Below are positions 9,057 to 13,760 of a DNA stretch of 40,896 nucleotides, piece by piece. A program made the translations under genes and the position numbers. The notes beneath the pieces were generated by a model. The model was given only the letters and a program-made list of their open reading frames with translations, searched no databases and was not told the origin of the DNA. Origin of the DNA: a virus (taxonomy: Duplodnaviria > Heunggongvirae > Uroviricota > Caudoviricetes); the IMG/VR virus record IMGVR_UViG_2558309052_000002, one strand, 5' to 3'. How positions within the stretch are numbered: the stretch's first letter is position 1; each line of letters opens with the position of its first letter.

Positions 9057-9937
9057 ACACTCCTCGTCAGTATTCTGGCGGCCATTGCACTTAATCCCGG
9101 AGACATGCGGTTGAATGCTGTGCCGACGGCGTTAAGCTGCCCGGAAACGGTATCCAGAGCACCTGCAATATTTCTTTTGTCCACACCACTCAGCGCAGAC
9201 TGTGCCTGCTGTACATACGTGGCTGCTTCGCTGGCTGTTCTGGCCAGACTGATGGCATCGGGCATGGATTCAGAGAGTGCGTTAAACGCCGGAACACTTT
9301 TCCCCAGAGCCCCGGAGATATTACCCAGTCCGCTCATCAGCCCCGGCACACGGGTCAGTGCGACAACGGGGTTATCCTTCATTTTCTGTGTCACCCGAAC
9401 GGCGCTGATAGTGGTCTGGAGTACAGACTGCGCCTGTTTCGCATAGTTGACGCCGTTGCGGATGAACTGCGCCACCCCTGAAGGTGAAGGTATGGCACCG
9501 GAGACCGCCCCGACACCCGGGAGCTTCGTGCGTATTGCCGGTGGTTGCAGAGGATTTTTCGGGTCACCGGTGTATTCCCGGAGAGACACGGTGGCACTGA
9601 CAGCCAGCACGTTGCCGGTACTGTCAGTCTGCTCGCTGGTTGCAGTCACATCGGTGATCACGAACCAGCCGCGATAGTCACCGTTGCCGAAGACCAGCGC
9701 CAGTGCCTGATGGGCTTTCATGGCTGTTCGCAGTCTCGCCAGCTCCACATCGGGTACACAATAATGCTGATGGAAAACCAGAGTTATCTGGATTTCGTCC
9801 AGCCTGTCGCCGACGAACTGCAGACCAGGCTTACCCCCGATGCGGGCATGCTCCGCATAATCGACGCCGAACGTGGCCTCGAAGCCGTCCCAGTAGGTAA
9901 TCAGCTCAAACTCAATATCACCCAGTACGGCAAACAT
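9053..9937 (-). CDS. tail protein (P2 gpU-like / Mu gpN-like position)
   Basis: 294 aa directly downstream of the tape measure gene; assignment is by gene order only. Confidence 0.5.
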   Translation of the reverse strand: MFAVLGDIEFELITYWDGFEATFGVDYAEHARIGGKPGLQFVGDRLDEIQITLVFHQHYCVPDVELARLRTAMKAHQALALVFGNGDYRGWFVITDVTATSEQTDSTGNVLAVSATVSLREYTGDPKNPLQPPAIRTKLPGVGAVSGAIPSPSGVAQFIRNGVNYAKQAQSVLQTTISAVRVTQKMKDNPVVALTRVPGLMSGLGNISGALGKSVPAFNALSESMPDAISLARTASEAATYVQQAQSALSGVDKRNIAGALDTVSGQLNAVGTAFNRMSPGLSAMAARILTRSV

Positions 9938-12888
9938 CAGCGGTACTCCTTACGTTGTTTCTGAGCCAGCAGACGCTCCAGCATTTTTTCCAGCTCATGC
10001 AGACTCATATTCAGGGCACCAGTCAGTCCTGCAGGCGCTGTGGTTTCCCTGCCATTGAGGAAAAACTGAGGATTAAAGCTGACCTGGATACCACCAGACG
10101 TTCCACCGCCGGTTGCAGCTGCACCACGGCCTGAATATCCGGCAGCCAGGATTTCAGGCGAGGGGATACGGGGAACATCCGGTGTCATCTCATTTGCCAG
10201 ACGTTGCCCTGGTAAAATCGATGCCCGGGTGGAGAGCGGAATAGCGGGCATGGAAGACAAACTATTGATTACGGCTCCGATCGCATTTTTAGCAGACGAC
10301 ATAAACCCATTGATATCGGGCAACGGCATACTGAAGCGAACACCTGAAGTGTTATCCCGTATTTCTGGCCCCTGAATGCTCACGGGCATTCTGGGGAGCA
10401 GTTCACTGGCCATTCGCTGCCCGGCCAGAGCTGCAAGCGGAGTGGTCCGCTGCAGGCCAATGGCGGCCCCCTGCGCGATATTGTCACCAAAGCCCATAAA
10501 CACGCGGCTCGGCGAATGAATGCCCAGCTTTTCGCTGAACCAGCCACTGATGCTGTCGCCCATTCCGGTTACACTGGATTTGAGCGACTCCCATTTGTTT
10601 TTGATACCGTTAATCAGACCATCGACAAGATGGCCACCGAAGTCGGTAAACTTTGCCGGCAGATCAACACCAAGATATTTCAGCGCAGCTGCAAAGGCTT
10701 TATAGAGCAGACCTGCCGGCGACCAGTTAATCAGCAGCTTACCAGTTCCCGCGATACCGCCGTTAAAGGCTTCCTGAATGTCAGCCCAGCATTGTTTAAA
10801 CCAGCTACTGATGCTGTCACCCATTCCGGTTACACTGGATTTGAGCGACCCCCATTTGTTTTTGATACCGTTAATCAAACCGTCGATAAGATGGCCACCG
10901 AAGTCGGTGAACTTTGCCGGCAGAGTAACGCCGAAATATTTCAGCGCAGCCGCAAAGGCTTTATAGAGCAGGCCTGCCGGCGACCAGTTAATCAGCAGCT
11001 TACCAGTTCCCGCGATACCGCCGTTAAAGGCTTCCTGAATGTCAGCCCAGCGCTGTTTAAACCAGCCACTGACTGCCCCCCAGTTGCGGTAGATAAGGTA
11101 AGCTGCTGCCGCGACAGCGGTGATAACGAGACCGATGGGATTCATCATCAGCGCTCGCCCAATCCAGAGAACGGCACGTGCAGCGCTCATAAAACCGCGA
11201 ACGAGGCTGCCCGCCAGAACTTTGCTGAGTTTCAGTCCTCCGCTGGTCAGTCGGCTGAATCCAGTGACAAGCCAGCGTAATTTGCCACCTTCTCCGAGTG
11301 CGGTAGTCAGTCGATGCCAGTTGGTCCGGAGTAAAACAGCAGTTTTCCAGACGTTCACAAAGGGGGAAATAAGGAGATTCAGCCCCAGTTTGAGACCAAC
11401 AGTCGCTATCTTAATCGCAAGGAGCGCACTGATGAGCTTAAAAGCCCCACTGACAAATTGCGGGTGAGTCGCCACCCAGTGTTTTGTCCCCTGAATGAGT
11501 GGGAGCAAGTCCTGAGTCAGAGAAATAAAAGATGGAGCTAATTGATCGCCCAGCGTAATTGCCAGATCGCGACTGCTGACCATAAGTGTTTTAGTGGCTT
11601 CAAGGGGAGATTTCAGCCGCTGATCATAAGCACTGGCAAGCAAATCGTTATCCGCAGCCCTGAGAGCACCGGCACGGATCTCTCGATATCTGTCCATGTT
11701 GGCCAGCATCGGGCGGATAAATGCCATGACCTGCATATCCGCGAACATATCGCCCAGACCAAAGTTTTTCGCCAGAGCCTGAAGTGCCTCATCTCTTGCC
11801 GTATCATTCTTTATTTTCATGGCTGATTTGAAGCCGGCCAGCGCTTCGGGGCTTTTGGCATTGAGGTAACGTTCTATAACACTCAACATCCCTTCAATCG
11901 GAGAGATCCCCGCAGCTTTATAACTCGCAATAGATCCCTGCAAATCAATACCCAGATCAGCAAACTGTTTCTGAGTATCGCGGGCAAAAATTTTGGTAAG
12001 AAAGTTTTTAAAATTATTGGCTGCTTCGTCGGTGGAACCTGCACCGATTTTTGCTATCTGGAGACTGGCCCCGATTTCAGCAACAGCCTCTTTTCCACTG
12101 GCAATACCCGCCATCATTGGGGCCAGGGACTGCATCCACTTGACCTGATCCGGGATTTCAAATGACCCCTGGTCACCGGCATAAGCCATAATATTCTGAA
12201 CGGCACCAAAATCTCTGGCCGCGCCTTTCAGGGAGTTTTGCCAGACTGCGGCCACTTTTGCCCAGTCCTGAGCAGACGTGCGTGTTGCCGTTGCCGCGCG
12301 GGCAATATCCGGCATCAGAAAACCGATATCTGACACATTATCAATATTGTCGCTGATGAGTGAACCCATCGCCTCCTGCAGCTCATCCTGATACTGATTG
12401 TATTTAAGCGCCCAGCCTTTTATCTGTCCGGCAAGTGCATCCCGCGTTTTATTGTCATATTTTGCGGTGATCGACATATCAATCATTTTGTCCTGAAAAG
12501 ACATGGACTGCTGAACGGCAGGGGAAACCGTATGATAAACAGTCTGTGCCATGCCATACGCTTCAATCCCCTGACCATACAGCGCCATGCGGTTAGCTTT
12601 CAGCGCATCACTGGTAGCGGATGCCGCTGACAGACGGCGCTGCTGGCGCTCAATTTGCTCCATGGTGCGGCTTACCCGCAGCAGCTCGCTGTTGAGATGC
12701 TGCATCCGGGAAGAACCCAGTTGACCATAACGTTCTGTTGCACGGGTTAAAGCGTTCTGACGTTCCTGCAGGCGGCGTGAGGTATCGCTCAGGGAATCAA
12801 GCGCACGGCGGGTACCGCTCATTGCAGAACGGAATGTGCTGCCAATCATCCCGCCGATAACAACGCCGACTGAAAACTGTCCCGACAT
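9937..12888 (-). CDS. tail tape measure protein
   Basis: 983 aa, alpha-helical and Gly/Ala-rich, downstream of the frameshifted tail chaperone; RBS GGAGG before the ATG at 12888; contains an internal 86-aa tandem duplication. Confidence 0.9.
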   Translation of the reverse strand: MSGQFSVGVVIGGMIGSTFRSAMSGTRRALDSLSDTSRRLQERQNALTRATERYGQLGSSRMQHLNSELLRVSRTMEQIERQQRRLSAASATSDALKANRMALYGQGIEAYGMAQTVYHTVSPAVQQSMSFQDKMIDMSITAKYDNKTRDALAGQIKGWALKYNQYQDELQEAMGSLISDNIDNVSDIGFLMPDIARAATATRTSAQDWAKVAAVWQNSLKGAARDFGAVQNIMAYAGDQGSFEIPDQVKWMQSLAPMMAGIASGKEAVAEIGASLQIAKIGAGSTDEAANNFKNFLTKIFARDTQKQFADLGIDLQGSIASYKAAGISPIEGMLSVIERYLNAKSPEALAGFKSAMKIKNDTARDEALQALAKNFGLGDMFADMQVMAFIRPMLANMDRYREIRAGALRAADNDLLASAYDQRLKSPLEATKTLMVSSRDLAITLGDQLAPSFISLTQDLLPLIQGTKHWVATHPQFVSGAFKLISALLAIKIATVGLKLGLNLLISPFVNVWKTAVLLRTNWHRLTTALGEGGKLRWLVTGFSRLTSGGLKLSKVLAGSLVRGFMSAARAVLWIGRALMMNPIGLVITAVAAAAYLIYRNWGAVSGWFKQRWADIQEAFNGGIAGTGKLLINWSPAGLLYKAFAAALKYFGVTLPAKFTDFGGHLIDGLINGIKNKWGSLKSSVTGMGDSISSWFKQCWADIQEAFNGGIAGTGKLLINWSPAGLLYKAFAAALKYLGVDLPAKFTDFGGHLVDGLINGIKNKWESLKSSVTGMGDSISGWFSEKLGIHSPSRVFMGFGDNIAQGAAIGLQRTTPLAALAGQRMASELLPRMPVSIQGPEIRDNTSGVRFSMPLPDINGFMSSAKNAIGAVINSLSSMPAIPLSTRASILPGQRLANEMTPDVPRIPSPEILAAGYSGRGAAATGGGTSGGIQVSFNPQFFLNGRETTAPAGLTGALNMSLHELEKMLERLLAQKQRKEYR
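10538..11053 (-). repeat. 258-bp perfect-frame tandem duplication inside the tape measure gene
   Basis: Two consecutive near-identical 258-bp units (10538-10795, 10796-11053) plus the start of a third. Protein shows WADIQEAFNGGIAGTGKLLINWSPAGLLYKAFAAALKY...GIKNKW.SLKSSVTGMGDSIS twice; near-identical shadow ORFs on + at 10520 and 10778. Confidence 0.9.
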
Positions 12889-12963
12889 AGTGGTTAACCT
12901 CCGGGGAAGGTGAAAAGACGTGAGGGGATAACGCAGAACAGCCGCTACTGGCGGCTGTCTGTA

Positions 12964-13381
12964 CTATGATTTGTCGCCGTACTCGCTTTTGATTTGCTCT
13001 TCAGCCTGCTCCAGCCACATCTCCAGATCGTCAGTATCGAGGGCATCAATCTCCCCCGGCTGAAACCGGAACCATCTCGCCAGCAGCCCCTGCGCCTGCG
13101 TCAGCGCCCTGGTTGCTCTCACCCATCCCCGTGATGAGCTGAAATCGTTTCTGTAACTGCAGGTAATCAGCCAGATCCATATTGTCGAGATCCTCCGGGA
13201 GAAGACCAGTACTGCGGGCAATCAGCGGTTCGTCCCAGTCTGCCGGGTTTTTGCTGATTTTGCGCACCTGCTTCAGGTCTTTTACCGTCAGGCGTTTCAG
13301 TTCAACCAGCTCAATTCTGGTGCCTGCAGCAGTGGTGAAGGGATAAGACAATTTAAAAGTATCGGATGGGGTCTGTGACAT
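12964..13381 (-). CDS. tail assembly chaperone, frameshift-extended form
   Basis: A second frame (stop at 12964) overlaps the 3' end of the chaperone ORF in a +1/-2 relationship. A G5 run (13053-13057) lies 5 nt before the zero-frame stop. Predicted fusion ...MVPVSAG/EIDALDTDDLEMWLEQAEEQIKSEYGDKS. Confidence 0.55.
13046..13381 (-). CDS. tail assembly chaperone (P2 gpE-like / Mu gp41-like)
   Basis: 111 aa, acidic C-terminal region; RBS AGGAG before the ATG at 13381; immediately upstream of the tape measure gene. Confidence 0.75.
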   Translation of the reverse strand: MSQTPSDTFKLSYPFTTAAGTRIELVELKRLTVKDLKQVRKISKNPADWDEPLIARSTGLLPEDLDNMDLADYLQLQKRFQLITGMGESNQGADAGAGAAGEMVPVSAGGD

Positions 13382-13402
13382 GATTGTGCTCCTGTGTAAG
13401 TT

Positions 13403-13442
13403 CAGGGCAGTATGTCGGGAGAAGCGCGTGACGGATATTAAA
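13403..13442 (-). promoter_or_regulatory. late-promoter-like motif (copy 3), upstream of the tail chaperone and tape measure genes
   Basis: TTTAATATC-N23-CTGCCCTG on the minus strand, same spacing as the two better copies at 19323-19361 and 26787-26825; preceded by a C-rich tract. Confidence 0.4.
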
Positions 13443-13478: not shown

Positions 13479-13760
13479 TCAGCAAGTGCGAAACCCCTTG
13501 CAGTTACGCAGGAAAGCGATGAGAAGCGTCTTTCCCTCAGATTTGCCGATGCCGGAGAACCAGTGGTCGGGAGGCTCCCATGCTTCAATCAAATCCGCCA
13601 GTTTGCGGGCCTTTGAACGTGTGCAGTCAATCGGGTCATTGGTTTTACGGGTATTAAAAAGGGTTTCCACCCCCGGAATATCAAGGAGGGTAAACCACGT
13701 ACCATTTGACATGCCCAGTGCCGCACATCGTCCTCCTTTATCCGTCAGTTCAACACTCAC
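13479..13760 (-). CDS. hypothetical protein (possible moron between tail tube and tail chaperone genes)
   Basis: 93-aa ORF (MSVELTDKGGRCAALGMSNGTWFTLLDIPGVETLFN...) with no family I recognise; followed by its own terminator-like hairpin; no counterpart at this position in canonical Mu or P2 gene order. Confidence 0.45.
   Translation of the reverse strand: MSVELTDKGGRCAALGMSNGTWFTLLDIPGVETLFNTRKTNDPIDCTRSKARKLADLIEAWEPPDHWFSGIGKSEGKTLLIAFLRNCKGFRTC

Follow-up and report, generated by a model that had tools for sequence, protein, structure and literature searches.

Overlapping Frames at the Tail Assembly Chaperone Locus

We analyzed a 40,896-nucleotide (nt) stretch of DNA from a tailed virus (IMG/VR record IMGVR_UViG_2558309052_000002, Caudoviricetes), the whole of which is called the window here, with emphasis on its tail assembly chaperone gene, in which a second, conserved reading frame overlaps the annotated one and which contains a candidate +1 frameshift site. 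The tail module in the window is that of a BcepMu-like (Bcepmuvirus), Mu-like transposable prophage of E. coli with a P2-type tail. Direct reading of the open reading frames (ORFs) places the tail genes on the minus strand, and the ORFs, Pfam matches and the record of Escherichia phage PhiKM (Bcepmuvirus) give the order sheath, tube, a small ORF, chaperone, and tape measure. The chaperone gene is thus a small ORF between the tube and tape measure genes, an arrangement of the lambda G/GT and P2 E/E+E' type.

The frame-0 chaperone ORF (P2 gpE/Mu gp41 type; 13046–13381, minus strand) starts with an ATG at 13381 and ends with a TGA at 13048–13046, encoding 111 amino acids. The protein belongs to the Pfam family Phage_TAC_7 (P2 gpE/FluMu gp41; E = 5.5e-21, residues 8–81), with a score of 74.8 bits against a gathering threshold of 25 bits. 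The chaperone region is 100% identical to that of PhiKM, whose record annotates "tail protein E" alone at this place and carries no frameshift annotation. Direct reading of the 3' end (TCA GCC GGG GGA GAT TGA) also confirmed the run of five G residues (G5; 13057–13053) to which a preliminary description of this DNA, made from the sequence alone, had drawn attention.

The +1 (equivalently -2) frame is open from ~13221 to a TAG at 12966–12964. Its translation in the window includes ...FQPGEIDALDTDDLEMWLEQAEEQIKSEYGDKS and ...LLARWFRFQPGEIDALDTDDLEMWLEQAEEQIKSEYGDKS. Based on translation, conservation and a match to phrog_8286, the part of this frame which would contribute to a long product is a segment of 58 codons plus the TAG (12964–13140, minus strand), SSSRGWVRATRALTQAQGLLARWFRFQPGEIDALDTDDLEMWLEQAEEQIKSEYGDKS. 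The -1 frame is also open across the frame-0 stop for ~50 codons (13046–12950, minus strand; RRRRGCWRDGSGFSRGRLMPSILTIWRCGW...); relatives do not conserve the resulting peptide, and this frame was rejected as coding. This open -1 frame appears to be a by-product of composition.

Within the +1-frame segment, a motif similar to P2 E', LARWFRFQPGEIDALDTDDLEMWLEQAEEQIKS (12985–13083, minus strand; residues 100–132 of the predicted fusion described below), was recognized as the core of a T domain by Pfam, BLASTP and PGAP. This region matches the Pfam family PF06528 (Phage_P2_GpE) with E = 0.0015 and 18.4 bits, which lies below the gathering score of 23 bits and therefore outside formal membership of the family. 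The match begins at LARWFRFQP, upstream of the G5 run, and the much stronger match of the +1 product to phrog_8286 (E = 3.4e-33, fusion residues 87–138) also starts upstream of it. BLASTP against P2 E+E' aligned the T domain with VAVIFHWPPSELYPMSLTELITWREKA (pairwise E = 0.03). In one decayed prophage, PGAP labels the +1 ORF "GpE family phage tail protein". An NCBIfam scan of the fusion and of the T domain yielded no matches.

Constraint on the Two Frames

To compare the two frames, we used 121 related loci, drawn from both genomes and viral contigs, which gave 87 distinct sequences; four aberrant ones were set aside, and the remaining 83 distinct enterobacterial relatives are those to which the fractions below refer. 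With other clades, the sample comprised ~100 distinct relatives (enterobacteria, Burkholderia, Pseudomonas, Ralstonia, and Caballeronia), and two more divergent groups, with ~50% identity, were found in Citrobacter (L141) and Salmonella (L142). Scanning viral contigs with P0104 gave no matches; scans with single proteins and look-ups of exact proteins were used instead. The frame under selection was judged by codon-by-codon tabulation and by nucleotide entropy at each codon position.

The +1-frame extension is kept in all ~100 distinct relatives across the five groups, with synonymous variation in that frame. It takes the form of an overlapping conserved ORF that runs past the frame-0 stop without a conserved start of its own. 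The preliminary description was therefore correct in stating that the two chaperone frames are offset by +1/-2, unlike the -1 relation of lambda G/GT and P2 E/E+E'. It had allowed for an overlooked -1 heptamer, and no usable one was found in the overlap: the sole in-phase X_XXY_YYZ sequence, A_AAC_CCG at 13250, lies deep within the chaperone domain and feeds the wrong frame, and it was rejected as a -1 site.

Down to ~13141, it is the frame-0 residues which are invariant through several codons, and upstream of this point the +1 frame is interrupted by stops in some relatives (13 sequences have one at 13174 and a single sequence has one at 13161). Selection is on the +1 frame from 13099 onward at the least. 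In that frame, Ala is found in 81/83 relatives (6 codons), Arg in 83/83 (4 codons) and Pro in 83/83 (4 codons), while frame 0 over the same bases varies among E/T/K, V/M, and P/S/Q/stop. For example, GAG GTG, GAG ATG, ACG GTG and ACG ATG all specify Ala-Arg-Trp in the +1 frame. The peptide ARWFRFQP, encoded upstream of the G5 run, remains invariant through such synonymous changes, and the six-codon Ala position (13095–13093) together with Gln at 13098 indicates that +1-frame selection extends upstream of 13090.

The linker at 13138–13100 is variable in both frames. The position of maximal entropy flips from codon position 3 to position 1 (the +1 wobble position) at ~13140–13125, which implies that the long product is already in the +1 frame ~28 codons upstream of the G5 run. 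The BcepMu clade gives a sharper picture. The base after TTT CGC may be A, C, G or T, which specifies Ser, Leu, Arg, Gly, Cys or Asp in frame 0 and is a silent Ala wobble in the +1 frame; judged from these sequences, the switch of constraint in this clade is immediate after TTT CGC.

A Conserved CGA TTT CAG as Candidate Slip Site

Stop codons in individual relatives confine the place at which the frame could change. On the upstream side, the last +1-frame stop is at 13161–13159 (in L006), and the +1 ORF opens at 13158. This bound is tighter in Ralstonia phage YO107_2 and Pseudomonas phage Komp_PAO1_1, in which a +1 stop lies three codons before the TTT of the site described here. On the downstream side, frame 0 stops 8 codons (Citrobacter L141) or 14 codons (Salmonella L142) after CGA TTT CAG, well ahead of the T-domain motif. 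This sequence (13147–13139) lies 28 codons (~84 nt) before the G5 run, and no other element of the permitted interval is conserved. The proposed +1 slip site, CGA_UUU_C (13141–13147, minus strand), consists of CGA at 13147–13145 (E site), UUU at 13144–13142 (P site, Phe80) and the C at 13141, which is the first base of the frame-0 CAG.

The site is conserved at the nucleotide level. TTTC was found in 83/83 and CGATTTCAG in 77/83 distinct relatives. TTT itself is used in all 83, whereas at other conserved two-fold codons of the gene the share of the top codon ranges from 0.54 to 0.93. Similarly, the rare Arg codon CGA occupies the site in 81/83 relatives but appears in only 1/83 and 0/83 at two other invariant Arg positions.

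TTT-C (13144–13141) was also detected in four other clades. In the BcepMu clade the aligned Phe lies in [T/G]C[C/T] TTT CG[C/T] in 13/13 distinct sequences, and the high-GC structural genes of BcepMu use TTT 10 times versus TTC 64 times. The corresponding sequence is GTG TTT CGG in Pseudomonas phage Komp_PAO1_1, ACC CGA TTT CTG in Ralstonia phage YO107_2, and TAC TTT CGC TTT CGA in a Caballeronia prophage. All +1-frame relatives examined therefore have a frame-0 UUU followed by a pyrimidine (C). Two other candidates for a +1 site, AAA_C (13150) and GGG_A (13129), were rejected because neither codon is conserved.

One variant (L062, two IMG/VR loci) has the frame-0 CAG at 13111, 10 codons after the candidate site, changed to TAG and retains an intact +1 ORF. 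If these phages are functional, the variant would fit a slip that takes place upstream of 13111 and would conflict with one at the G5 run.

Proposed Mechanism and Long Product

We consider it likely that the chaperone gene makes its long form by a +1 slip of tRNA-Phe from UUU to UUC at CGA_UUU_C. Most ribosomes would translate frame 0 to the TGA at 13048 and release the 111-amino acid chaperone, and a minority would shift by +1 at the site (13147–13141). The peptidyl-tRNA-Phe, wobble-paired with the UUU in the P site, would re-pair one base downstream on its cognate UUC, after which decoding would restart at AGC (13140). A shift of +1 rather than -2 is proposed because UUC is fully cognate, whereas, as read from the sequence, a tRNA moving by -2 from UUU would be placed on GAU with two mismatches.

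The predicted long product is a fusion of 138 amino acids, M1...Q77-K-R-F80 followed by SSSRGWVRATRALTQAQGLLARWFRFQPGEIDALDTDDLEMWLEQAEEQIKSEYGDKS (58 codons, 13140 to 12967), and its C-terminal part would correspond to P2 E' and to the T domain of lambda. If gpG/gpGT of lambda are taken as a model, both the short and the long form might coat the tape measure protein, with the T domain recruiting tube subunits. CGA, which is decoded through an I:A wobble, would occupy the E site at the moment of the slip, and this weak pairing may help. Weak E-site pairing is known to favour +1 shifting in RF2 (Atkins review, PMC5009743), and CGA may play a similar part in the slippage proposed here. From sequence alone we infer the ribosomal slip itself, its +1 rather than -2 direction, its position on UUU, the help of CGA and the role in assembly.

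Several observations weigh against a slip at CGA_UUU_C. First, both frames are partly conserved for ~14 codons past CGA TTT CAG; since both frames are translated there, the switch of constraint is gradual, and selection analysis alone cannot pin the slip to a nucleotide. Second, no clear stimulatory signal was seen: downstream RNA structure over 13150–13030 is no better than that of shuffled sequences (minimum free energy, z = -0.79), the site has no Rfam match, and no Shine-Dalgarno-like element was seen by eye upstream of it. In addition, the frame-0 A-site codon is CAG (CGC, CGG or CTG in other clades), which is not rare, unlike that of classic hungry-codon +1 sites. Enterobacteria and Ralstonia keep CGA whereas Burkholderia and Pseudomonas do not, and the role of this codon is therefore uncertain. 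Finally, frame 0 of the window phage reaches two GGG_G sites (at 13090 and in the G5 run), at which minor additional or adventitious shifting may occur in this phage.

Alternative Explanations

It is unlikely, though less so than the other alternatives, that the +1 shift takes place at another or a lineage-specific site within 13138–13085, TTT-C being kept merely through dual coding or codon-pair effects. The likeliest such site is GCA GGG GCT (GGG_G at 13090–13087), which permits perfect +1 re-pairing and whose Gly at 13090 is present in 82/83 relatives. Such a position would also agree with +1-frame selection being strongest from ~13099 onward and with the variability of the 13138–13100 linker in both frames. 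However, frame 0 of L141 and L142 ends before the equivalent of this site, the codons used at it include GGC and GGA, which do not form GGG_G, and +1 selection is already visible upstream of it, at the Ala and Gln positions mentioned above. Moreover, BcepMu, Pseudomonas and Ralstonia phages have no equivalent of the site, yet all of them retain TTT-C. If dual coding were the cause of the frozen CGA/TTT, a still earlier shift would be needed, in a stretch over which several lineages have no open +1 frame.

A second possibility, which we regard as very unlikely, is that no frameshift occurs and that the +1 ORF is a separate small GpE-like gene with its own start (GTG at 13122, or the ATG of BcepMu gp42). 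PGAP indeed calls a 52-amino acid "GpE family phage tail protein" from GTG 13122 in the one decayed prophage, phrog_8286 models a stand-alone protein, and members of the BcepMu clade share one in-frame ATG within the +1 ORF. Nevertheless, the residue at GTG 13122 in enterobacterial relatives is Ala in 41, Val in 21, Leu in 12 and Ile in 9, showing that the start is not conserved, and no consistent start codon or ribosome binding site was found across clades. In P2, the homologous E' is made only as part of the E+E' protein, through a verified frameshift whose site aligns with the one proposed here, and a separate gene would leave the nucleotide-level freezing of CGA TTT C unexplained.

The remaining alternative is the one put forward in the preliminary description: a programmed, Mu-like shift at the G5 run, five nucleotides before the frame-0 stop, by re-pairing of tRNA-Gly. 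A -2 shift (GGA to GGG) would give ...SAGG-EIDAL... and a +1 shift (GGG to GGG) ...SAG-EIDAL..., so that the trans-frame peptide would read ...MVPVSAG(G)EIDALDTDDLEMWLEQAEEQIK, with GG for -2 and G for +1. The run is indeed there and would formally permit either re-pairing, the verified -2 site of Mu is also a G5 run leading into the same relative frame, and a position near the frame-0 stop is typical for many chaperone frameshifts. GGA is also a low-usage Gly codon.

In the +1 frame, however, the run (13053–13057, minus strand) reads CCG GGG GAG, the Pro-Gly-Glu of the T-domain motif, and it does not behave as a conserved slippery site. Ribosomes in frame 0 would encounter it in only 24/83 relatives; in 29 it is present behind an upstream frame-0 stop (GTT TAG at 13069), and 30 have no G5 run there (e.g., CCG AGT GAG, Pro-Ser-Glu). 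Overall, frame 0 stops at 13069, upstream of the G5 position, in 36/83, and replacement of the run by CCG AGT GAG and similar sequences was observed in Brenneria, Pectobacterium, Photorhabdus, and Xenorhabdus. The codon phase of the run (GGG GGA) differs from that of Mu (xGG GGG), and G5 runs are not enriched in the window (48 observed vs. 98 +/- 11.5 expected from shuffles).

Furthermore, the +1 frame is under selection ~15–28 codons upstream of the run, and a product switched at the run, including the predicted ...SAG-EIDAL..., would lose the invariant LLARWFRFQP half of the T domain, which is part of the GpE/phrog_8286 match. A programmed shift at the G5 run is very unlikely and the least probable of the explanations considered: the preliminary description is right about an unusual and unannotated frame relation and wrong about the site, and its Mu-like -2 mechanism is probably wrong too.

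Several database entries touch on the run in another way. Seven assemblies (the Logan contigs L145–L150, and L014 from Erwinia tracheiphila) have G4 in place of G5. Frame 0 is thereby joined to the final 29 residues of the T domain, giving 138-amino acid "fused" proteins (P0001, P0003). The same G5-to-G4 change occurs in six independent runs, the contigs are short, and some contain fragmented tape measure genes; these assemblies are probably homopolymer errors or decayed prophages. We therefore rejected the 138-amino acid "fused" database proteins as proof of a natural shift at the G run, and other fused calls switch frame at unrelated positions.

Comparison with Known Frameshift Systems

The gpE/gpE+E' pair of P2 resembles the window genes in several respects. 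Its chaperone belongs to the same family (Phage_TAC_7), its gene is flanked by FII (tube) and T (tape measure), and it has a homologous C-terminal T domain (FHWPPSEL...W in P2 vs. FRFQPGEI...W in the window), its E' extension (...VAVIFHWPPSELYPMSLTELITWREKALRR) being aligned with the window sequence LLARWFRFQPGEIDALDTDDLEMWLEQAEEQIK. The two also share an aligned Phe at the end of the chaperone domain, ~20–25 residues before the motif. On the other hand, P2 uses a verified -1 shift on the tandem U6G heptamer G_UUU_UUU_G (GGT TTT TTG), whereas the window has its T domain in the +1 frame, a single UUU followed by C, and a T domain whose Pfam GpE score remains below the family threshold, as noted above.

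Alignment of six known or predicted fusions (the window phage, Citrobacter, Salmonella, BcepMu, P2, and Acidobacteria) placed the slip-site Phe in one invariant column. Relatives with a -1-frame T domain bear classical heptamers at the aligned place, T_TTT_TTG in P2 and T_TTT_TTA in Acidobacteria, and another -1-frame relative, Pasteurella phage AFS-2018a, has A_AAG_GGA there. The shared Phe position and these heptamers suggest that the family shifts at one homologous place, with the direction following the frame of the T domain.

Mu gp41 is encoded by a transposable phage at the same gene position, with the same relative (+1/-2) frame and a G5 run in both phages. It differs in that the Mu chaperone belongs to Pfam Gp41_Mu and has a borderline TAC_7 score, and in that its slip takes place on a G run near the frame-0 stop (CAA GAA CGG GGG CGA); the G run of the window has a codon phase of its own, is situated within the T domain, and in most relatives is either missing or beyond the reach of frame 0. 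No -2 re-pairing is possible at the conserved CGA_UUU_C, and a +1 direction is accordingly proposed here, unlike in Mu. The -2 frameshift of Mu was reportedly established by Xu, Hendrix and Duda in 2004 by mass spectrometry, the product having one extra residue relative to that of a +1 shift.

The -2 shift in Mu mentioned in the preliminary description is borne out by the Mu record ("verified -2 translational frameshift in PMID 15469818", at CGG GGG CGA) and by the Atkins review. A Mu-type -2 event in the window would be formally possible by GGA-to-GGG re-pairing, at a place downstream of the start of +1 selection. The KS10 paper cites -1 or -2 shifts from Xu et al. and reports that no site was found in KS10.

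With regard to the signal itself, UUU_Y (UUU_Ynn) has been documented as a +1-prone dicodon in E. coli, it appears to be the site in YopN-TyeA of Yersinia, and PA-X of influenza A uses UCC_UUU_CGU, in which the 5' codon has an influence (PMC5009743). As in these systems, a single P-site tRNA-Phe would slip from UUU to UUC here, with downstream structure unnecessary. The BcepMu-clade sequence TCC TTT CGC/CGT is almost identical to the PA-X site. The present case differs in its context, a phage tail chaperone, and in the enterobacterial 5' codon (CGA) and 3' codon (CAG, not rare).

Forward shifts are also known among tail chaperones: those of actinobacteriophages and of the haloarchaeal virus HSTV-2 are annotated as G/GT-type pairs made by a +1 shift, although they belong to unrelated protein families and hosts. 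PRFect lists 350 forward and 2,368 backward annotated chaperone frameshifts in SEA-PHAGES genomes, and the review of Atkins et al. (PMC5009743) lists the use of -1, -2 and +1 in tail chaperones, including the -2 of Mu.

In the BcepMu record (L126; AY539836, 4603–5364), gp42, the +1 ORF with the T-domain motif, is annotated as the "G" protein, and gp43, which is GC-rich, shares the frame of gp41 and overlaps the start of the tape measure gene, is annotated as the slippage product. The sequences compared here indicate that the real BcepMu pair would be gp41 and the gp42 frame, joined by a +1 shift at TCC TTT CGC.

Neighboring Genes and Distribution of the Prophage

The tail sheath gene (15711–14284, minus strand) was recognized by Pfam Phage_sheath_1 and Phage_sheath_1C, and the tail tube gene (14284–13763, minus strand) by Phage_tube (E = 2.9e-53). 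Between the tube and chaperone genes lies a 93-amino acid ORF (13479–13760, minus strand), which is kept in relatives and has weak Pfam labels (DUF7739, and Phage_gp49_66 in a Salmonella relative). Immediately downstream of the chaperone gene is its partner, the tape measure gene (9937–12888, minus strand; 983 amino acids), identified in the ORF list and annotated in PhiKM.

Within the tape measure gene there is a tandem repeat (10538–11072) made of 2.0 copies of a 261-nt unit with 93% identity, corresponding to an internal duplication of 87 amino acids. This gene has a sequencing gap in the PhiKM record, and its copy in RefSeq strain SK1144 is flagged as incomplete. The repeat may be a source of assembly problems or reflect real variation in tail length.

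The tail region (12900–13420) was found in 636 of 5,426 complete E. coli genomes, in 575 of them at 99% identity or more, and no frameshift annotation was present in the examined records among these 636. The prophage family thus occurs in ~12% of complete E. coli genomes; it is also found in Burkholderia, Pseudomonas, and Ralstonia. In all, 704 E. coli copies of the tail region were counted, with up to 3 copies per genome and one copy borne on a plasmid.

Implications

Forward frameshifts in tail chaperones and the shiftiness of UUU_Y are both already known, and no concept is changed by the present analysis; the event proposed here would be a mechanistically ordinary +1 frameshift that was previously unannotated. 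In the searchable literature, whose coverage is incomplete, no report of the slip site in BcepMu-like or P2-type chaperones was found, only general statements. A broader reading, which we offer tentatively as quite possible though somewhat less than probable, is that a widespread Mu-like/BcepMu-like family uses an unannotated +1 shift on a minimal CGA/UCC_UUU_C, essentially a bacterial PA-X signal, at the Phe codon on which P2 shifts by -1, with the frozen CGA acting as an E-site stimulator.

The finding is of use chiefly for annotation and for method. Neither the PhiKM record nor hundreds of E. coli prophage copies in RefSeq include the long chaperone product, and in BcepMu, the type phage, the G/T pair is apparently mis-assigned. 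As for method, a homopolymer beside the frame-0 stop is a tempting wrong guess, and comparison of the frames under selection puts the slip ~84 nt upstream of it.

If confirmed, the site would add a bacterial virus to the known users of the UUU_C +1 signal, influenza PA-X and YopN-TyeA, and it would offer a system for asking whether a 5' CGA promotes +1 slippage. Together with P2 it would form an evolutionary pair, -1 versus +1 at one Phe codon, in which co-evolution of frameshift direction and T-domain frame could be studied. The chaperone family would then provide a natural example of an exchange of frameshift direction between homologous genes at one codon.

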